Below, in pieces: positions 31,160 through 42,690 of a stretch of DNA of 64,000 nt. Each line of letters starts with the position of its first letter. Position 1 is the first letter of the stretch. A program made the position numbers and the translations under genes. Below the pieces are notes generated by a model. It worked only from the letters and a program-made list of their open reading frames with translations, was not told where the DNA came from and made no database searches. The DNA is taken from sequence record DRR723986_5073; one strand, written 5' to 3'.

Positions 31160-31260
31160 CGCCATGCCGTGGATGTGTGGTCCAGGAATGGCGGTTTGCC
31201 CGCCGCCAGGCGATTTGGGGGGAGTGCGGCGGGCAAAACGCGGGACGCTGCGAGGCGTCC
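31160..31260 (-). ncRNA. Candidate sRNA, orphan copy of the two-hairpin C-rich-loop family
   Basis: Minus strand GTCCCGCG TTTTGCCCGCCGC-ACTCCCCCCAAATCGCCTG-GCGGCGGGCAAA C CGCCAT...ATGGCG. Shares its upstream motif with array unit 4. Confidence 0.55.
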
Positions 31261-31341
31261 TTGATTTCAAACGCTTGAGCGCCTGGAATCCGTCGCGGAA
31301 ATTTGCCCGGCGGACGATTTTTTTTACCGAGCACATAGCCC

Positions 31342-33938: not shown

Positions 33939-34568
33939 ATGACCGAAACGAAAGAGCGTTCAGAACGCCGGCGAACCCGCCGCGGCGAGGAAACCCGCCG
34001 GCAGCTGATCGAAGCCTGCATCGATTGCCTGAACGAGCGCGGCTATGCCGGCACCTCAATCGAAGCCGTCATGTCGAAAGCCGGGATCAGCCGCGGATCC
34101 GTCCTGAACCAGTTCCCGACCCGGCTGGACCTTATGACCGCGACCATCGAAGCTGCGATGCGCGGCATGATGGCCGACACCAGCGCCCGGTTCGCCCGGA
34201 TTTCAGATCCGGTCGAGCGCCTTCGCCGCCTGTGCGACCTCTACTGGGAAACGCAATGCCTGCCGGTGTCGGCGGCGGTGACGGAAGTGCTGCTGGCGGC
34301 GCGCTGGGACACTGAACTGGGGGCCATGCTGGGCCGAGTCACCAAGGAAATCGAGATCGAGCTGGACGCCGAAACGCGGCGGCGCGGCGAAGAAGCGGGC
34401 GTCAACGACATCGAAGCGCTGGTCGTGCATGCGCGCATGCTGATCCTGTCGCTGCGCGGCATGACGCTGGAACTCATGTTCGACCCGGACCGGCAGATCA
34501 TTCACCATGCGCTGGAGGAAATCCGCACATCGCACCAGGCTTTCTGCGACAGGATGCTGGCAGGCTAG
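33939..34568 (+). CDS. TetR-family transcriptional regulator
   Basis: LIEACIDCLNERGYAGTSIEAVMSKAGISRGSVLNQFPTRLDL HTH. Confidence 0.9.
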   Translation: MTETKERSERRRTRRGEETRRQLIEACIDCLNERGYAGTSIEAVMSKAGISRGSVLNQFPTRLDLMTATIEAAMRGMMADTSARFARISDPVERLRRLCDLYWETQCLPVSAAVTEVLLAARWDTELGAMLGRVTKEIEIELDAETRRRGEEAGVNDIEALVVHARMLILSLRGMTLELMFDPDRQIIHHALEEIRTSHQAFCDRMLAG

Positions 34569-35443
34569 GCCGGCAGCTTGTCCGGATTGCGCATGATATA
34601 GAGCCAGGCAATGCGGCCGTCGACGCCGGGGGCGAGCGTGATGACGAAATCCACCTGTCCATTCACGCGGCGCAAAATGGCCGGGGTGCCATTCGCATGG
34701 CCGGGTTCCAGCGTCCATGGTGTCGTCTCTGCCATCTTTGCGGACTTTTCCGTCACCGCGAACAGAACCTGCACGATTTCGGTCGCACCGTTCAGTGGAC
34801 GGAGGGCCGCGCGCGCTTTCTTTCCGCCGTCGGAATAAGCGATGGCGCCGGGCGAGAACAGGGAGAGAGCCGTCTCGTGGTCCTGTGCGGTAGCGGCGCT
34901 CATGAAGCGCTGCAGCAGTGAGGACACTTCGTCCGGCGAGGCGTCAAAGCGCGGGCCGCTTTCCTGCAAACGTTTGTGCGCCCGGCTGACCAGCTGGCGG
35001 CAGGCAGCCTCCGACTTGCCGGTCGCCGCCGAGATCTCGTCATAGCCGGCATCGAAGGCTTCGCGCAGGATGAAGGCGGCCCGCTCCTTTTCCGACAGGC
35101 GTTCCATCGCCCAGAGCAGGGCAAGCTCGCACTCTTGTGCCAGCGCAAAGCGTTCCTCAATGCCCAGGCTTTCGCTCTGCACCAGTGGCTCCGGTAGCCA
35201 CGGGCCGGGATAGGTTTCCCGCCGTGCCCGGGCGGACCGAAGCGCATCGATGGCGATCCGTGTGGCGGTGCGGCGCAGCCAGGCACGCGGGTTTTCGATA
35301 GCGTCGTGATCGGCCCGCTCCCAGCGCAGCCAGGTGTCCTGTACCGCATCTTCGGCGCCGGCGCGCTCGCCCAGCATGCGGTAACACAGGGCCGTCAGGG
35401 CCGGGCGTTCGGCTTCGAACAGGGCGGTGTCGGCGGTACTCAT
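34565..35443 (-). CDS. ECF sigma factor, ECF41/SigJ type with C-terminal SnoaL-like extension
   Basis: YRMLG..AEDAVQD, RRETYPGPWLPEP, ACRQLVSRA, DGGKK, MRNPDKL. Confidence 0.92.
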   Translation of the reverse strand: MSTADTALFEAERPALTALCYRMLGERAGAEDAVQDTWLRWERADHDAIENPRAWLRRTATRIAIDALRSARARRETYPGPWLPEPLVQSESLGIEERFALAQECELALLWAMERLSEKERAAFILREAFDAGYDEISAATGKSEAACRQLVSRAHKRLQESGPRFDASPDEVSSLLQRFMSAATAQDHETALSLFSPGAIAYSDGGKKARAALRPLNGATEIVQVLFAVTEKSAKMAETTPWTLEPGHANGTPAILRRVNGQVDFVITLAPGVDGRIAWLYIMRNPDKLPA

Positions 35444-35976
35444 GCGGCGAGCTTCACGACCTTGCCGCCAAAGTCCAGCCTGTGGCAGGCCTGCCCGTGG
35501 CCGAGGCCGCGCTTCAGTACCGGATAGATACGGCCCGATGCCGCCGCGAAGGCGCAGGAGAGCGCGGCTTTCCTGCCGAACTCGCTTTCGATCTCGCGGC
35601 GCAGATCGTCGGCAGCGACGTCTCCGGCGATGGCGGCGCAGGCGAAGCGGAAGCCGAGCCCCATGGCACCGGCATCTTTCGGGCGGCCTTCCGCGCAGGC
35701 CTGTAAGGCGTCCGCATCGGCGCCGTTGGCCAGCGCCATGTCGACGACCAGCTGGGCACACGGGCCGCAATCGCCTTCCAGCGTGGAGGCCAGCAGCGCG
35801 CCGGTCCAGACCGGGAGGCCGTTTGCAGGGCCGCGATATTTGTAAAAGTTCGGCAGGCGGGACAGCGAGATTGCCGCGCCGGGCGAGACATCCGCGATTT
35901 CGTGCATATAGGTCACGTCATAGCGGAAGGCGCGGCCGAATTTGCGGATCTGGGAATGAAGGAACTTGCGGATCAT
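35440..35976 (-). CDS. AhpD/carboxymuconolactone decarboxylase-like protein
   Basis: EGDCGPCAQL CxxC motif; SD AAGGAG; typical ECF41 partner position. Confidence 0.7.
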   Translation of the reverse strand: MIRKFLHSQIRKFGRAFRYDVTYMHEIADVSPGAAISLSRLPNFYKYRGPANGLPVWTGALLASTLEGDCGPCAQLVVDMALANGADADALQACAEGRPKDAGAMGLGFRFACAAIAGDVAADDLRREIESEFGRKAALSCAFAAASGRIYPVLKRGLGHGQACHRLDFGGKVVKLAA

Positions 35977-36415: not shown

Positions 36416-38296
36416 CTAGGAGGCAGCTTCCAGCGCTTCGGCGGCTTCGAGCCAGGCGTGTTCGGCTTCTTCGGCCGTTTCGGCGTGGGTGGCGCGGGTT
36501 TTCAGGAGCGTTTCAAGCTCTTCCGGCGGCGAGGTGCCTTCGGCGAGTTTCGCGTCGATCTTTGCGATGGCGGCGTTCGCCTTTTCCATCCGCTCCTCGG
36601 CGTCTCGGGCCTGTTTCTTCAGGGCCGAGAGGCGTTTCTTGTCTTCCGGCGAGGCGGCGGGTTTCGGGGCGGCCTGCTTCGGTTTCGTGTCTTTCGACCT
36701 GGCCTCCTTCGCCTCGGCGCGGTCGGCCTTCATGACGAGGGCGCGGTAGTCTGCGAGGTCCCCGTCATAGGTTGTCGCGCGGCCATCCTTGACCAGCCAC
36801 AGCCGGTCGGCCGTCGCTTCGGCAAGATAGACGTCGTGCGTGATGAGCAGGACGGCGCCGGGGAAGTCGTTCAGCGCGTAGATCAGTGCCTCGCGGCTGT
36901 CGATGTCGAGGTGGGAGGTCGGTTCGTCGAGGATCAGGATATGCGGCGCCGAATGGGACATGAGGCCCAGCAGCAGGCGAACTTTTTCGCCGCCCGACAG
37001 TTTCTCGACCTTGGTTTCCACTTTCTCCGCCGAGAAGCCCATGGCGGCCGCAGCGGCGCGCACTTTCGCGGGTGGCGTGTCCGGCGGCAGCAGGCGGCGC
37101 ACATGGTCCAGCACGCTGTCGCCTTCGGACAGCTCGTCCAGCTGGTCCTGCGAGAAATAGCCGATGCGCACGGCCTTGGGTGTCACGCGCTTGCCTGCCA
37201 TCAGCGGCAGGCGTTCGGCGATGGATTTAACCAGCGTCGTCTTGCCCTGTCCGTTGGCGCCGACGATGGCGATGCGGTCGTCCGGGTCCAGACGAAGGTT
37301 AACCTTCGACAGGATACGCGCGCCTTCGCCATAGCCGAGATCGGCATCCTTCAGTTCCAGCATCGGCGGGGCCAGCTTGTCGGCGGGCGGCGGGAAGTGG
37401 AATGGCGTGGTGCGGTCGGCAACGGGAATGGAGATGTCCTGCATCTTCTCCAGCATCTTGATGCGGGACTGCGCCTGCCGGGCCTTTGAGGCCTTGGCCC
37501 GGAACCGGTCGACGAAGCTCTGCAGGTGGGCGCGTTCCTTGGCCTGTTTCGCTTGCTGGGACTCCAGCTGAGCCAGCTTGGCGGCGCGAAGTTTCAGCCA
37601 GTCATCATAGCCGCCGGGCGTGATGGACAGCTTCTTGTGTTCCAGCGCCATCGTGTGGGTCACGCAGCGGTTCAGCATTTCCCGGTCGTGGCTGACGATC
37701 AGGACTGTGTACGGATATTTCCGGATATAGGTTTCCAGCCAGGCGGCGCCCTCGAGGTCCAGATAGTTGGTTGGCTCGTCCAGCAACAGGAAGTCCGGCT
37801 GGGAGAAGAGCACGCCGGCAATGGCCGCGCGCATGCGCCAGCCGCCGGAGAATTCCTTCGTGGCGCGGGAGAGGTCTTCATCCGAAAATCCAAGCCCGTG
37901 CAGCACTTCGGCGGCGCGGGCCTCTGCCGACCAGGCGTCGATATCCATCAGGCGTTCGTGGATCTCGCCGATCCGGTTCGGATCCGTCGCGGTCTCGGCT
38001 TCCTGCATCAGGGCGTGGCGCTCGGTGTCGGCGGCGAGGACGACCTCCAGCACGGTCTCGTCGGTCGGGGCGACTTCCTGGGCCACCCAGCCAAGCCGGG
38101 CGCCGGTGTTCAGCCGGATCGCGGCGTCATTGGTCGGGTGTTCCACATCCTCCCGGATCAGGCGCAGCAGGGTCGACTTGCCGGTGCCATTGCGGCCGAC
38201 AAGACCGACTTTCCAGCCGGCCGAGATCTGCGCGGAGGCAGACTCGAACAGGGGCCGGGCTTCAACCTGGAAATCGAGGTTCGTGATGGTGAGCAT
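36416..38296 (-). CDS. ABC-F family ATP-binding protein (YheS-like)
   Basis: Two ABC domains (GRNGTGKST/FSGGWRMR/LLDEPTNYLD; GANGQGKTT/LSGGEK/ILDEPTSHLD), no TM segments, C-terminal coiled coil. Confidence 0.95.
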   Translation of the reverse strand: MLTITNLDFQVEARPLFESASAQISAGWKVGLVGRNGTGKSTLLRLIREDVEHPTNDAAIRLNTGARLGWVAQEVAPTDETVLEVVLAADTERHALMQEAETATDPNRIGEIHERLMDIDAWSAEARAAEVLHGLGFSDEDLSRATKEFSGGWRMRAAIAGVLFSQPDFLLLDEPTNYLDLEGAAWLETYIRKYPYTVLIVSHDREMLNRCVTHTMALEHKKLSITPGGYDDWLKLRAAKLAQLESQQAKQAKERAHLQSFVDRFRAKASKARQAQSRIKMLEKMQDISIPVADRTTPFHFPPPADKLAPPMLELKDADLGYGEGARILSKVNLRLDPDDRIAIVGANGQGKTTLVKSIAERLPLMAGKRVTPKAVRIGYFSQDQLDELSEGDSVLDHVRRLLPPDTPPAKVRAAAAAMGFSAEKVETKVEKLSGGEKVRLLLGLMSHSAPHILILDEPTSHLDIDSREALIYALNDFPGAVLLITHDVYLAEATADRLWLVKDGRATTYDGDLADYRALVMKADRAEAKEARSKDTKPKQAAPKPAASPEDKKRLSALKKQARDAEERMEKANAAIAKIDAKLAEGTSPPEELETLLKTRATHAETAEEAEHAWLEAAEALEAAS

Positions 38297-38370
38297 GCGC
38301 GGGTGTGTAACCGGGCCTGTGGTGAAAGCAAGGCCGGGAATGATACTGAAGAAATTCTGTGCAGTGGCGG

Positions 38371-38500
38371 GAAAAGGGGCCCGCCATGCCTATCAATCCG
38401 GGGGGCAGGACTAGGCATGGCGGGCTGTTCGCTGTCCCCGAGTGCGGTGGGAGAATGGGGAAATGGTATCCACAGCGAAGAAGGCCCAAAGTGCGGGCTT
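38371..38500 (-). ncRNA. Candidate sRNA unit 1 of tandem array
   Basis: Stems (plus-strand) TTCGCTGT/ACAGCGAA (38428-38479) and GCCCGCCATGCCTA/TAGGCATGGCGGGC (38379-38425); C-rich loops and a U-run on the minus strand. Confidence 0.65.
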
Positions 38501-38554
38501 CACAGACAGGACGTTTCGGTCCGGCGCTTTATCCAGAACTTTTTCGCTGACCTG

Positions 38555-38650
38555 AGAAAAAAGAGGAGCCCGCCGTGCCGGTCAGGATTTCCGGCCCGGC
38601 GGGCAGTCCGCGTCTGACAGTTTCAGGGCTGTCACAGCGAACGGGACTCT
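38555..38650 (-). ncRNA. Candidate sRNA unit 2 of tandem array
   Basis: Starts GTCCCGTTCGCTGT on the minus strand; hairpins at 38606-38642 and 38568-38604; then TTTTTT. Confidence 0.65.
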
Positions 38651-38702
38651 TGAACATGACGCCTGGCGCGCGCGATTTATCCATATCGGCCGAAAAACGA
38701 GA

Positions 38703-38806
38703 GAAAACCCGCCATGTCGTCTATCGCGGGGGGTGAGGACGGGACGACATGGCGGGCGGTTCGCCGTTCGGTTTCCAGGGGGGGAAGAAACGTTTCGAAC
38801 GGGACC
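38703..38806 (-). ncRNA. Candidate sRNA unit 3 of tandem array
   Basis: Starts GGTCCCGTTCG; 14-bp stem CCCGCCATGTCGTC/GACGACATGGCGGG (38708-38756); C6/C7 loops; then TTTT. Confidence 0.65.
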
Positions 38807-38900
38807 TCTCTCGTCCTTTCCATATGGGAGAAGCAGGCGTCGTTTCCATGGTATTCACGCGTTCGTGAGAGGTGAAATTCCGGTAAGGAATCGGGGCCAG

Positions 38901-39010
38901 AAAATGGAGGTGCCCGCCATGCAGTCTGTTGGGGCTCAGGGGGTAAGGCAGACAGCATGGCGGGCGGTTCGCTGTGTCATTTCAGGGAGGATACAACAGC
39001 GAACGGGACC
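38901..39010 (-). ncRNA. Candidate sRNA unit 4 of tandem array
   Basis: GGTCCCGTTCGCTGT-TGTATCCTCCCTGAAATGAC-ACAGCGAAC-C-GCCCGCCATGC...GCATGGCGGGC...TTTT. Confidence 0.68.
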
Positions 39011-39117
39011 GGTTGCGGCGAACCGCTTAAAGGTCAAACGCGGCGCGCTGCGGTTCCCGTCGCAGGAATCTCAATTGTGGCGGAAGTTTAATCCGAGGGA
39101 CGCAGGGAAGCTGCCGC

Positions 39118-39606
39118 CTATTTGATCGCTTGCAGATCGTCCCAGTATTCGATGGGCGGAACGTCGCGGATCATCTCTTCGACCATCGCCGTGAAGCCAG
39201 CATTGAAATAACCGGAGGTCAGACCCCACAGCGCGCGGGCCCGTTCGGTGCCGAGCACGAAATAGATCACGCCGCGATAGGTTTCCCACGACTCCTTGTC
39301 CATGGCGCCAGACTTGTATTGCAGCCACTCATATTCGCGGGCGCGCATCTGACCGATCATCCAGAAGATCACTTTTGTCTTCTCTTCGAAACTCGGCGTT
39401 TCGACCTGCGATAGGATGCGGCCGAGTTCCGGGAACTCGACGAATTTGTAGACGCCGGTCTGGTCGTTCGTCAGCTGGGTCTGCCGCGCGTCAGACCGCA
39501 GAAGATCAGTGCCTTGCCTCACTTGCAGGGCGAGGAAGATCAGGGTCGCGGCGACGACGAGCACGCCGGCGATCTGGGCGATATAGGCAATCTGCTCAAG
39601 GGTCAT
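39118..39606 (-). CDS. Single-pass membrane hypothetical protein
   Basis: MTLEQIAYIAQIAGVLVVAATLIFLALQVRQ anchor; EWLQYKSG...W motif similar to 42037-42690. Confidence 0.8.
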   Translation of the reverse strand: MTLEQIAYIAQIAGVLVVAATLIFLALQVRQGTDLLRSDARQTQLTNDQTGVYKFVEFPELGRILSQVETPSFEEKTKVIFWMIGQMRAREYEWLQYKSGAMDKESWETYRGVIYFVLGTERARALWGLTSGYFNAGFTAMVEEMIRDVPPIEYWDDLQAIK

Positions 39607-39705
39607 GGGGGGCTCCGACTGAACCGAGCGCGCCGATCGCGCGTTCCAGCGAGGTGATGTTCCCGTCCGTATTGTTGCGGACGGCATTTGTGAAACAGTG
39701 GAGGA

Positions 39706-40467
39706 TCATCTGCGGCGCTCCAGTTCCTTGTCGATCACGGCCAGGGCGCGTTCCGCCGTCTCGTTCTGCTTGTGAAGGTCGGCGGGCGTCGAGACCATGA
39801 GGCCGGCCCATTCGGTCAGCAGCGGCTCGATATCAGGGGTGGCCGTGATCTTCTCGGCAGTTCGGCGCGCAGCCTCATCGGTGACGCCTTTCGGACAGTC
39901 GAGGATGTAGGTTTCGGCGCCATCTTTCAGGTCGTAGCAATGTTCCCAGTAGAAAGCCTGCGCATCCAGAGGGATCAGCTGGCGCACACGCGACCGGTAC
40001 GCGGGTACAAAATTTGTCACGGACAAATTGTCGTTTGTCGCGAGATATGCCTCAACGGCGTCGATGATCTCGCGTGACTGGGGCAGCCCCTGCCGGCGCA
40101 TCTCGGCATAGGTCGACCGGTCGACGTCGATGGGTTGCCACTGGGAGGCATGAAAGAAGTCCACAACGACGGGCCAGCATTCCGTCCCGCAAGAGGTACC
40201 GCTTGCCATGAAGTCGAGCGAGCGTTTCCCGGCTGCCACGACTTGTCCGATGGCATCTGCCTTCTGGTTCGTGACGCGGATGGAGGTTTCGACTTCCTCT
40301 TTCAGTTCAATGAGCAGTGCGGTTTCCCGCGCCCTGTCCGCGCGCGCTTCGTTCCAGTTGCCAAGCTGGATACCGAGGAAGACACCCAGCACGACGATCA
40401 GCGTTTCGATGAAGACAGTGAACCAGTCCTGCTTGCGGATGGAGGTGGCGAGGCGCTGGAGGATCAT
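39706..40467 (-). CDS. Single-pass membrane protein (DUF6090-like N-terminus), paralog A
   Basis: MILQRL...RKQDWFTVFIETLIVVLGVFLGIQLGNWNEAR. Confidence 0.82.
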   Translation of the reverse strand: MILQRLATSIRKQDWFTVFIETLIVVLGVFLGIQLGNWNEARADRARETALLIELKEEVETSIRVTNQKADAIGQVVAAGKRSLDFMASGTSCGTECWPVVVDFFHASQWQPIDVDRSTYAEMRRQGLPQSREIIDAVEAYLATNDNLSVTNFVPAYRSRVRQLIPLDAQAFYWEHCYDLKDGAETYILDCPKGVTDEAARRTAEKITATPDIEPLLTEWAGLMVSTPADLHKQNETAERALAVIDKELERRR

Positions 40468-41255
40468 GGCGCGGCATCGCTCTCGCGGCGCGAGCCTGAC
40501 GTGCCCAGTTCCTTCGTCAGTTCAGCATCCAGCACGGTCAGGACCGCAATGCGGTCTTCGTACCGGTCGAGGAATGACTCCAAGCGTGCGATGTTGTCGC
40601 TGTACTCGCTGAGGAGGCCCTTATTCCCGCGTATCTGGTCGATGTCACAATTATATCGCCACACCAGGCCTTTGTCGTCACGGCCCGCACTTGGAGAAAC
40701 GTAGCCTGCATCTTCAGCACGCCCCACTTCGAGCCAGATGGCGTCCGGATACCGTGTGTGAAGCCGGAAAAGTTCGTTGACCGCTTCTGCCCGCGCAGAA
40801 CGGGAACGTTCCTGCACAACAGCATAATCGCGCAGGGCCGCCTTCACGGAAGGGTTGGAAATCAGGTCAAACCGGCCGGACGAAATGAGCTCATCAAGGC
40901 TCGACAATGCTTCGGTGGGCGAGGGCATCCAGTGAGAGACGAGCAGAGCCCAGCACTCTTCATTGGTGAGTGGCCGTGACGGCGCGAGCGAGAACATGAC
41001 GGAATTAGCGTCTGTGGCCAGCCCAATGCGAGGGCTATGTACGGCCAGCTCTTCTTTCTGTGTGTCCAGAAGTGAGCGGGTCTCCTCCTGCAGGCGCAAG
41101 AGCAGGACCTGCTCGCTGTTTCGCTCAACCCGCGCCGCGTTCCAGTTGTTGACCTGCAGACCGATGAAAACGCCGAACACCACGATCAGCGTCTCGATGA
41201 CGACGGTGAACCAGTCCTGCTTGCGGAGCGCGGTGGTGAGACGGCGGAGGATCAT
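40464..41255 (-). CDS. Single-pass membrane protein (DUF6090-like N-terminus), paralog B
   Basis: MILRRL...RKQDWFTVVIETLIVVFGVFIGLQVNNWN; LDELISSGRFDLI. Confidence 0.82.
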   Translation of the reverse strand: MILRRLTTALRKQDWFTVVIETLIVVFGVFIGLQVNNWNAARVERNSEQVLLLRLQEETRSLLDTQKEELAVHSPRIGLATDANSVMFSLAPSRPLTNEECWALLVSHWMPSPTEALSSLDELISSGRFDLISNPSVKAALRDYAVVQERSRSARAEAVNELFRLHTRYPDAIWLEVGRAEDAGYVSPSAGRDDKGLVWRYNCDIDQIRGNKGLLSEYSDNIARLESFLDRYEDRIAVLTVLDAELTKELGTSGSRRESDAAP

Positions 41256-42040
41256 CGTGTTGTCTCCAGATCAGACACCAGTGATGCTGCCTGTCGGTCA
41301 AGATACTCAAGCAGTGACCGGAGCCCCGAAAGATTATTCAGACGCGCGTTCAGCTGGGATCGGAGCGCCGCCGACTCCCGGAGGCTTGCGGCTGAGCGCA
41401 TAACAAGAGCAAAATCTTCTGGCGGCTGACAGTCATTATAGAATGTCGTGGGGGTTGTAGCTGGCGAGCTGGGCTCGAGACTGTCCGCTGACAGACAGTC
41501 GGCCATAAGCATACCGACGCGGCCTTCGATTAATTGGTGCACCAGGTCGGCATAGGCGGATTTGAATGTCAACGATATTTCAATCTCGCGCGCGGAGTCT
41601 TCATAATAGTCGCGCAGCCGGCGTTGCATCGATCCGCTGGTGATGAGGTCCAGATCGCCAGCGTTCTGAAGTTCTTTGTATATTTGCGCCGAGGGTGCGA
41701 ATGGCCATTCGCCGCCGGCGATCCAGCTGTCGCGGACAAACCGCCATGCCTCATCGACCGTTTCGGCCGGACCGGACCGCAGAGCGTCATCAACGCGGAG
41801 AGCGGCTTCCAGGACTTCCTCGTACCACTGCCGACGAATGGCAAAGGCGTCGAGATCAGCGCGCAAATCGGCAATGAGCCTCTCACGCGAGGTCTCCGCC
41901 TCAATCCGATCCCTCCGCGCCTCATTCCAGTTGTTGACCTGCAGACCGATGAACACGCCGAAGACAACAATCAGGGTTTCGATGAAGACGGTGAACCAAT
42001 CCTGCTTGCGGAAGGCGTCGGTAATGCGGCGCAGGATCAT
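41252..42040 (-). CDS. Single-pass membrane protein (DUF6090-like N-terminus), paralog C
   Basis: MILRRI...RKQDWFTVFIETLIVVFGVFIGLQVNNWN; YKELQNAGDLDLI...LRDYY. Confidence 0.82.
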   Translation of the reverse strand: MILRRITDAFRKQDWFTVFIETLIVVFGVFIGLQVNNWNEARRDRIEAETSRERLIADLRADLDAFAIRRQWYEEVLEAALRVDDALRSGPAETVDEAWRFVRDSWIAGGEWPFAPSAQIYKELQNAGDLDLITSGSMQRRLRDYYEDSAREIEISLTFKSAYADLVHQLIEGRVGMLMADCLSADSLEPSSPATTPTTFYNDCQPPEDFALVMRSAASLRESAALRSQLNARLNNLSGLRSLLEYLDRQAASLVSDLETTR

Positions 42041-42690
42041 GGGGCGGGATCCGGCTCAGGCGGTGGCAGCTTCAGGCGGTCGAGATTGTTCGCGAGGAAG
42101 TTTTCATCGAGGCCGTCGACGATGGGGCCAGCGATTTCCATCATAGGGGTTCCATCCCAGCCTTGTGCCTGCAATTGCCACCAGTGTTTGGCAAAGCGGC
42201 TTCCGAAATAGTAGGGGGCCGAGTTCTGAATGTGCTGGCGGGCATGGTCGCGCGATACAAGCCCCGCCTCTTCCATCTGTAACATCTGGTCCCATTGCAG
42301 CATCAGCGCAACGAGATGGCTCTCCACCATCCGCGCTTCGGTATCCGTAAGGGCCTCAGGGGTGCGGATGGATTTGACCCAGACGTCCGCCATCTCATTT
42401 TTTGCGATGCTGAACTCGATCTGGGCGAGCAGGTCATTTTTCTGCTGCTCCATGGCGGTTCGGGTGAGCGCTGCGTTCTGGTGCACTTCAACGATCAGCA
42501 TGATCAGGCCGGCAAGAACCGCGACATTGGCGCCGAGCGTGAGCCAGCGGTTGAGGCGGTCCAGTCGCCCCGGCGCCGGTGCGGCTGGCGGGCTGCCGAT
42601 TGGGGGCGAGGCTCCGGACGCAGACGGCGGACTGTCAGCGTCCGGTTTCCTGCGGATTCCGGACAGGAAATCAGGTAGCTTCAAGCGCAT
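42037..42690 (-). CDS. Single-pass membrane hypothetical protein
   Basis: LTLGANVAVLAGLIMLIVEVHQN anchor; related architecture to 39118-39606. Confidence 0.78.
   Translation of the reverse strand: MRLKLPDFLSGIRRKPDADSPPSASGASPPIGSPPAAPAPGRLDRLNRWLTLGANVAVLAGLIMLIVEVHQNAALTRTAMEQQKNDLLAQIEFSIAKNEMADVWVKSIRTPEALTDTEARMVESHLVALMLQWDQMLQMEEAGLVSRDHARQHIQNSAPYYFGSRFAKHWWQLQAQGWDGTPMMEIAGPIVDGLDENFLANNLDRLKLPPPEPDPAP

Follow-up and report, generated by a model that had tools for sequence, protein, structure and literature searches.

The stretch of DRR723986_5073 analysed here, 64,000 nt in length and called the window in the following, carries a tandem array of four minus-strand elements in a gap between two genes. 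Their stems covary, which confirms them as a family of sibling structured RNAs. Among the genomes searched, the family appears to be restricted to part of one marine bacterial genus. It is absent from Rfam and previously uncatalogued, whereas its kind, the sibling small RNAs (sRNAs) with C-rich loops exemplified by CcsR, LhrC and GsrN, is well known. The first-pass annotation of the window had proposed a possibly undescribed system; the family is indeed new, but the term "novel system" is too strong. We consider it probable, though far from assured, that the elements are four independently transcribed, trans-acting sibling sRNAs whose C-rich loops would pair with G-rich or Shine-Dalgarno (SD) regions. 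Genome-wide statements in this text rest on relatives of the window.

A tandem array of four two-hairpin units

The array occupies a gap of ~820 bp between the start of an ABC-F gene at 38296 and the stop of the upstream open reading frame (ORF) at 39118, which agrees with the ~800 bp of ORF-poor sequence described in the first-pass annotation. An inverted-repeat scan also returned the four second hairpins at the positions given there. The units are numbered along the minus strand from U1 to U4, and a distant diverged element is called U5. Scores refer to R1, a covariance model built from 13 units, namely the four of the window, their orthologues in two relatives that are 96% (G001) and 80% identical to the window over the region, and one unit of a third relative. 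A second model, R2, is broader.

38898-39014, minus strand: U1 (R1 99 bits; fold z = -6.88)
38693-38810, minus strand: U2 (R1 99.3 bits; fold z = -6.53)
38554-38652, minus strand: U3 (R1 81.2 bits; fold z = -5.20)
38365-38490, minus strand: U4 (R1 87.3 bits; fold z = -5.48)
38379-38392/38412-38425, 38568-38581/38591-38604, 38708-38721/38743-38756 and 38912-38928/38949-38965: arms of the second hairpins from the inverted-repeat scan

Each unit folds into two hairpins (rounded z = -6.9, -6.5, -5.2 and -5.5 for U1 to U4), and an equally stable shuffle was found in 0/200 cases per unit. Hairpin 1 of U1 is formed by GUUCGCUGU and ACAGCGAAC with the apex UCCUCCCUGAAA, and hairpin 2 by GCCCGCCAUGCUGUCUG and CAGACUGCAUGGCGGGC around the loop CCUUACCCCCUGAGCCCCAA, with a short U-run behind it; this type is represented by 15 orthologous units from 14 genomes. 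U2 presents UUCUUCCCCCCCUGGAAAC at the apex of hairpin 1 and CCCGUCCUCACCCCCCGCGAUAG in the loop of hairpin 2, after which follows UUUUCUCUCGUUUUU, and according to folding its first hairpin pairs in a shifted register. The hairpins of U3 are shorter, with CAGCCCUGAAAC at the first apex and CUCCUCUUUUUUCU after hairpin 2, while U4 has a long hairpin 1 with CCAUUUCCCCAUUCUCCCACC, the loop GUCCUGCCCCCCGGAUUGA in hairpin 2 and then CCCCUUUUCCC. The earlier description of every unit as a hairpin pair closed by a U-run is borne out for the two stable hairpins; the register of U2 is shifted, however, and the U-runs are short or interrupted. As candidate intrinsic terminators, the second hairpins have strong stems followed by U-runs of 4-6 nt, which are interrupted or offset in places.

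The sequence GCCCGCCATG has five exact matches in the 64 kb, and every one falls within the array, as do all three exact matches of GTCCCGTTCG. With up to one mismatch, GCCCGCCATG matches 33 times against 16.7 expected, a number that was reached in 0/100 shuffles. No protein-coding frame was apparent: in a comparison of five four-copy arrays, none of the ORFs stays in the same frame.

Covarying stems and C-rich loops

In a MAFFT alignment of the 13 units that make up R1, 89.2% of the cells pair, compared with 32-41% when the partners are slid, and changes on both sides occur in 6 of 22 pairs. The previous suggestion that the upper stems differ between units and yet stay paired is thus well founded. 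A larger alignment of 51 matches, obtained by fitting to the model and with one antisense row among its members, gave 90.8% pairing cells and double changes in 15/22 pairs, with 0/500 shuffles equal. In the U3 orthologue of G014, compensatory changes rebuild both stems.

The loops are C-rich, as had been noted, and the apical regions of the units contain CCUCCC, C5 and C7 tracts. CCC is present in apical region 1 of 50/50 units and CCCTG in that of 31/50. Loop 2, which consists of 52% C, contains CCCC in 46 of the 50 units. CCUCC is found in apical region 1 of 18/50 units and in loop 2 of 10/50. The homopolymeric C tract in loop 2 of U2 varies between species from ~6 to ~14 C (e.g. L010:1501-1620 and L011:1501-1619).

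Promoter-like signatures upstream of the units

An alignment of the 85 nt upstream of each unit, arranged by paralogue type, revealed three signatures that are conserved within a type and differ between types.

39037-39092, minus strand: U1 signature with ATTAAACTTCCG at 39092-39081, GCGACGG at 39063-39057 and, after N16, CGTT at 39040-39037
38822-38849, minus strand: sigma-32-like motif of U2, ATGGAAA-N13-TCCCATAT
38855-38886, minus strand: block upstream of the putative U2 promoter, TTACCGGAATTTCACCTCTCACGAACGCGTGA, with the inverted repeat TCACG-N4-CGTGA
38658-38683, minus strand: extracytoplasmic function (ECF)-like motif of U3, TGGATAA-N15-CGTC, present in 7/7 U3 units
38510-38535, minus strand: ECF-like motif of U4, TGGATAA-N15-CGTC, present in 8/10 U4-type units (G066 and G046 differ)

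Across the U1-type units (15/15), GCGACGG and CGTT do not vary, and we read this signature as a putative promoter-like motif of ECF type. GCGACGG-N16-CGTT occurs 9-12 times per genome, compared with 4-9 times for the control, and it recurs at conserved intergenic sites in three genomes as well as upstream of U5. These conserved intergenic sites may represent the putative regulon of an ECF sigma factor.

The sigma-32-like pair is found upstream of U2-type units only. Genomes with a single copy carry the U2 type exclusively, and every one of these single units has the pair, reading CTTGG(A/C)C..CCTA(A/T/C)AT (CTTGGAC..CCTATAT in distant species). The motif resembles the dnaK promoter of the genus, CTTGTGA-N13-CCCCATAT. 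Searches with TGGAAA-N14-CCCATAT, exact or with one mismatch, returned only the sRNA sites and intragenic chance matches. Further upstream, TCACgAAnGCGTGA is kept in 18/18 U2-type units, the most distant single-copy species included, and the block at 38855-38886 may be a candidate site for a regulator (transcription factor).

The motif shared by U3 and U4 can be written as GGATA-N16-CGTC. It has the same spacing as GGAAC-N16-CGTT, the canonical EcfG site found next to phyR-nepR-ecfG in this genus, and differs from it at two of the nine specified bases. The octamer cTGGATAA was also found at three other intergenic sites in G001 and G085.

The proposal that each copy has an individual promoter and terminator gains support because the paralogue-specific upstream motifs are conserved, but the terminators are weak. 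The further idea that each copy is wired to a different sigma factor is not borne out, as U3 and U4 share one motif and U1 shares its motif with U5.

Some observations made along the way concern these motifs and their surroundings. The conserved GCGACGG-N16-CGTT sites lie upstream of genes for an EF-hand-like secreted protein, a riboflavin synthase, a 379-aa protein and a PepSY-like membrane protein (loci L214, L216, L227; L212, L226; L210, L211; L219). At the phyR-nepR-ecfG locus (L177 in G085, L178 in G014, L179 in G001), two divergent neighbours stand behind canonical GGAAC-N16-CGTT sites. There are three NepR-like matches per genome in G085, G014 and G001, and paralogous EcfG-type systems may exist. 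As a comparator for sigma-32, groES was discarded as not clean, since it has a TTGACG..CCCTACGT promoter together with a repeat resembling the controlling inverted repeat of chaperone expression (CIRCE).

Independent genes or one processed precursor

In the scenario that we favour, four paralogous minus-strand genes would give RNAs of ~100-130 nt, each composed of a first hairpin and a terminator-like second hairpin with C-rich single-stranded apices. Every gene would be transcribed from its own promoter, which would be of sigma-32 type for U2, of one ECF type for U3 and U4, and of a second ECF type for U1. The C-rich loops (CCUCCC, C5-C7, CCCUGAA) would then base-pair with target mRNAs at G-rich or Shine-Dalgarno regions. 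This pairing would alter the translation or stability of the targets, so that several stress inputs could converge on overlapping sets of mRNAs. From the features described above we infer transcription, the transcript ends, the assignment of motifs to sigma factors, action in trans and the pairing targets.

RNA libraries from estuary water and seawater contain parts of the region, and their contigs cover the units at 90-99% likeness. In two seawater libraries (X2, X3) contigs on the array have a depth of 8.9-18.1, and those on the flanking genes one of 2.5-5.5. Genes cannot be ranked by contig depth, and libraries may contain DNA; we take the higher values as a weak hint of expression. Another library, X17, contains the whole region in one long contig, which is probably genomic. 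One contig (X2 record 17) joins 38400-38596 (U4/U3) to 38669-38807 (U2) and skips 72 nt; this junction may reflect a variant strain or repeats that collapsed during assembly.

Several points weigh against four independent, mRNA-pairing sRNAs. U-runs behind hairpin 2 are short, or they are interrupted, and some orthologues lack them. A simple consensus scan calls neither a sigma-70 promoter nor a terminator at the units, in the latter case because the loops exceed 8 nt. With weak U-runs and no called terminator, read-through or co-transcription is possible. The library contigs show neither transcript ends nor strand. Apart from the comparisons within the genus, the likeness to sigma-32 and ECF promoters is judged by general consensus sequences. 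The motif GGATAA-N15-CGTC is near chance genome-wide, with 5-6 sites per genome compared with 2-5 for the control, and no regulon supports it. Finally, many genes of the window have no obvious Shine-Dalgarno sequence.

Some of these points would fit a different scheme, which we regard as rather improbable. Here the array would yield one precursor, whose transcription would start chiefly at the U1 promoter (or come from the upstream gene) and which RNase E would cut as in CcsR1-4, and the inter-unit motifs would be processing or regulator sites. The weak U-runs and the missing terminator calls are what one would expect of such a precursor, and library contigs do bridge unit boundaries (X3 record 26 covers 38708-38989, X1 record 2 covers 38335-38614), but a contig with two genes is no proof of a single transcript. 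There is also a precedent, as CcsR1-4 are processed from one transcript according to the accessible portion of PMC8034643. On the other hand, the motifs between the units have the appearance of -35/-10 pairs, are constant in spacing and are specific for the type of unit, the U2 motif agrees with the promoter of dnaK in the genus, and single-copy genomes keep this motif directly upstream of their unit.

The array may also be read more broadly than as four independent sRNA genes, albeit only tentatively. In this version, a heat-shock sRNA gene would have given rise to four or five siblings by duplication, and each of them would have come under a different alternative-sigma promoter (sigma-32 and two ECF classes), so that a common C-rich scaffold would funnel distinct stresses to shared G-rich or SD targets. 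A bolder version still would have the anti-SD-like loops influence translation jointly with ABC-F, the ribosome factor encoded next to them.

Distribution within the genus

R1 matched 20 of the 80 genomes of the genus, and 16 of the 51 high-quality ones. Sense copies number four in six genomes, three in one, two in seven and one in six; the array of the window is the seventh with four copies. The copies are confined to one short stretch of a single contig, with the exception of G046, where the array lies at two contig ends. Outside the genus, R1 gave 0/140 in genomes from elsewhere in the order, including 120 genomes of five other families, none of which matched, and R2 gave 0/123 in genomes from 17 other genera of the family. 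These scans used strict filters on sampled groups, and the absence holds for the genomes searched.

This distribution bears on the idea that the units are repetitive extragenic palindromic (REP) or miniature inverted-repeat transposable element (MITE)-like repeats, or else stacked terminators of the upstream gene. Such GC-rich palindromes are common, and a contig scan with the generic hairpin pattern GCCCGCCATG-N14-44-CATGGCGGG found more than 123 unrelated loci across bacteria among the matches listed. Hairpins that fit this pattern, from many phyla, were considered as relatives and rejected, since they reach at most 39 bits with R1 whereas family members score 43-112 bits. Instead of the hundreds of copies that would mark such an element, there are 1-4 per genome at one syntenic locus in 20/80 genomes, as the copy-number check proposed by the first-pass annotation revealed. 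The loop sequences and upstream motifs are conserved as well. We thus find an origin as mere repeats or terminators barely credible.

Synteny with an ABC-F gene

In 19 of 21 loci, the gene directly downstream of the RNA encodes an ABC-F family ATPase. Two single-copy genomes are the exceptions, as there another gene stands between the unit and the ABC-F gene, or the flank ends.

36416-38296, minus strand: ABC-F family ATPase gene, 626 aa, Pfam ABC_tran x2 and ABC_tran_Xtn
38305-38332, minus strand: promoter-like element of the ABC-F gene, CTTGCTTTC at 38332-38324 and GTTACAC at 38311-38305, 8 nt before the ATG at 38296

RNA copy number tracks relatedness as measured by the identity of the ABC-F protein to that of the window. 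At 74-83% identity there is no RNA copy; at ~87-89% there is one copy, which is U2-like and has the sigma-32-type motif; and above 90% there are two to four. Five RNA-less genomes of the genus encode an ABC-F with 74-83% identity; here R1 found no match even with the filters off, and upstream of the ABC-F gene lies only a short, unrelated intergenic region. G067 contains a chimeric unit (L012:1501-1612), whose first hairpin is of U2 type and whose second is of U4 type; this implies a deletion by recombination between repeats. The simplest history starts from one gene with a sigma-32-type (heat-shock-type) promoter beside ABC-F, which underwent tandem duplication and then divergence of promoters and loops.

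Some ABC-F genes of other bacteria have attenuator leaders, and in the 19/21 loci mentioned above the array immediately precedes ABC-F, on the same strand. One could thus imagine that it is a cis-acting array of leaders or attenuators controlling the downstream ABC-F gene. We judge this very unlikely. An element cTTGCnTTC..GyTACAC is found 7-8 nt before the ABC-F ATG in 21/21 RNA-bearing loci, and a similar one in 2/5 RNA-less genomes; such a promoter-like element of its own argues against the array as the ABC-F leader. The same holds for the relatives with 74-83% identical ABC-F but no RNA, for the promoter-like motifs of the units themselves and for the two genomes where another gene intervenes.

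If the units are expressed as inferred, the genus possesses an uncatalogued sRNA family of one to four copies with a U2/U4 chimera and paralogue-specific promoters. This would be a compact natural case for the origin of sibling sRNAs by duplication and for their rewiring to different stress sigma factors. The family would also add a covariance model for annotating the genomes of the genus, and it leaves the overall understanding of riboregulation in bacteria unchanged.

Comparison with known small RNAs

Over the window, Rfam 15 returned no family at gathering score. At E <= 10, the array region gave four chance-level matches only (F6, snoU83B, DUF3800-IX and mir-128), and at E <= 0.1 nothing was found in seven orthologous loci. 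Among the papers listed on Hyphomonas small RNAs, titles and abstracts gave no sign of relevance.

One close resemblance is to CcsR1-4 and the cuckoo RNAs (Rfam ar14) of Rhodobacter sphaeroides and Rhizobiales, CcsR1-4 likewise being four homologous sRNAs in tandem in an alphaproteobacterium. As far as the accessible portions of PMC8034643 and PMC4615179 describe them, cuckoo/CcsR RNAs are defined by 2-4 adjacent hairpins of similar size with CCUCCUCCC in each loop, and the CIN1 subgroup by a DUF1127 neighbour. The same portions describe further common traits: RNAs built of two neighbouring hairpins whose loops are C-rich and anti-SD-like, stems that vary by compensatory changes while the loops are conserved, and a heat-shock (RpoH-type) promoter, for which the candidate counterpart here is the sigma-32-like motif, known from sequence and confined to the U2 type. 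The first-pass annotation had nevertheless kept the array apart from cuckoo/ar14, and rightly so. The ar14 covariance model of Rfam gives no match, and the exact CCUCCUCCC is present in 0/50 units, a comparison that does not extend to the published variants; the cuckoo matcher, as presented in the available text of PMC4615179, also accepts loop-motif variants. In the 2015 screen, that text lists matches only in Rhodobacteraceae, four Rhizobiales families and Polymorphum. The absence of a DUF1127 gene was also stated correctly, as PF06568 was found in 0/3 complete genomes of the genus by a search that does find the E. coli control. Moreover, CcsR depends on one operon promoter and RNase E processing, whereas the units of the array each have a promoter-like motif.

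LhrC1-5 of Listeria monocytogenes offer a second parallel, and LhrC1-4 are in tandem. They too are multicopy siblings with two stem-loops and C-rich loops. Both the first loop and that of the terminator carry redundant UCCC motifs, which, according to the accessible part of PMC4132741, bind targets at their Shine-Dalgarno region. The LhrC RNAs belong to an unrelated phylum without sequence relation, however, and all copies depend on LisR, unlike the array with its three upstream signatures.

GsrN comes from the same order. In Caulobacter crescentus and other Caulobacteraceae this RNA of ~100 nt is driven by EcfG/SigT, and a cytosine run in its 5' hairpin pairs with G-rich mRNA leaders (PMC5869019, in the portion available). 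The U3/U4 motif has EcfG-like geometry, but the GsrN promoter reads GGAAC-N16-CGTT where U3 and U4 have GGATA-N16-CGTC. Outside C. crescentus, gsrN usually lies near phyR-nepR-ecfG, whereas the array is distant from that locus: in G085 the two are ~286 kb apart, with the array at 2.545 Mb and nepR at 2.260 Mb, and in G001 and G014 they are on different contigs. R1 and R2 match nothing in the other families of the order, which provides an indirect comparison with GsrN. The C-rich loops of sX13, RepG, RsaE and RNAIII target G-rich or SD sequences and are analogous but non-homologous, as judged from the available text of PMC4615179; these are single genes from unrelated lineages, and no Rfam model matches the array region.

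The comparison also bears on an explanation without mRNA pairing, by which the C-rich loops would act as a titrating sink for an RNA-binding protein or some other RNA. Several redundant C-rich loops at one locus are indeed decoy-like. Yet no candidate gene for a protein partner is linked, the neighbours being ABC-F and uncharacterised paralogues, and DUF1127 is absent from the three genomes searched. In addition, the C-rich-loop sRNAs CcsR, LhrC and GsrN act by base pairing in the parts of the literature available to us. A role as protein-binding or sponge RNAs is therefore unlikely, and we keep to sRNAs that would pair with mRNAs.

A diverged fifth element and further neighbours

The first-pass annotation spoke of five copies, a number that is explained by an element at ~31.2 kb. 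This element is much more diverged, with 19.5 bits for R1 as compared with 81-99 bits for the four array units.

31190-31296, minus strand: U5 (R1 19.5 bits, E = 0.0037), with the motif GCGACGG-N16-CGTT at 31296-31270

U5 lies between two convergent genes. Its hairpins are GGACGC/GCGUCC and GCCCGCCGC..GCGGCGGGC with the loop ACUCCCCCCAAAUCGCCUG, and no U-run follows them. It was found by blastn in 7/80 genomes, G085 was added by a pattern search, and the element is kept in at least nine genomes. In three of nine aligned sequences, GCCCGCC/GGCGGGC of hairpin 2 is replaced by GCCUGCC/GGCAGGC, a compensatory change. With moderate confidence, we regard U5 as a putative diverged sibling of the array units.

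The remaining observations concern the neighbouring genes. The start of the ABC-F gene has no Shine-Dalgarno sequence, and the short distance between its -35/-10-like pair and the ATG suggests that the ABC-F mRNA may be leaderless. On the other side of the array, five ORFs of 189, 253, 263, 262 and 217 aa without Pfam match occupy 39118-42690 on the minus strand. Several of them are paralogous, with the N-termini MILQRL or MILRRL, and their number and identity differ between otherwise syntenic genomes. A search of a protein atlas with the 189-aa neighbour returned unnamed clusters only. Between the array and U5 sits an ORF at 34565-35770 (minus strand) with ECF-type Sigma70_r2 and r4_2 domains at residues 117-270 and ~130 further C-terminal residues; none of the three promoter-like motifs is found upstream of it.

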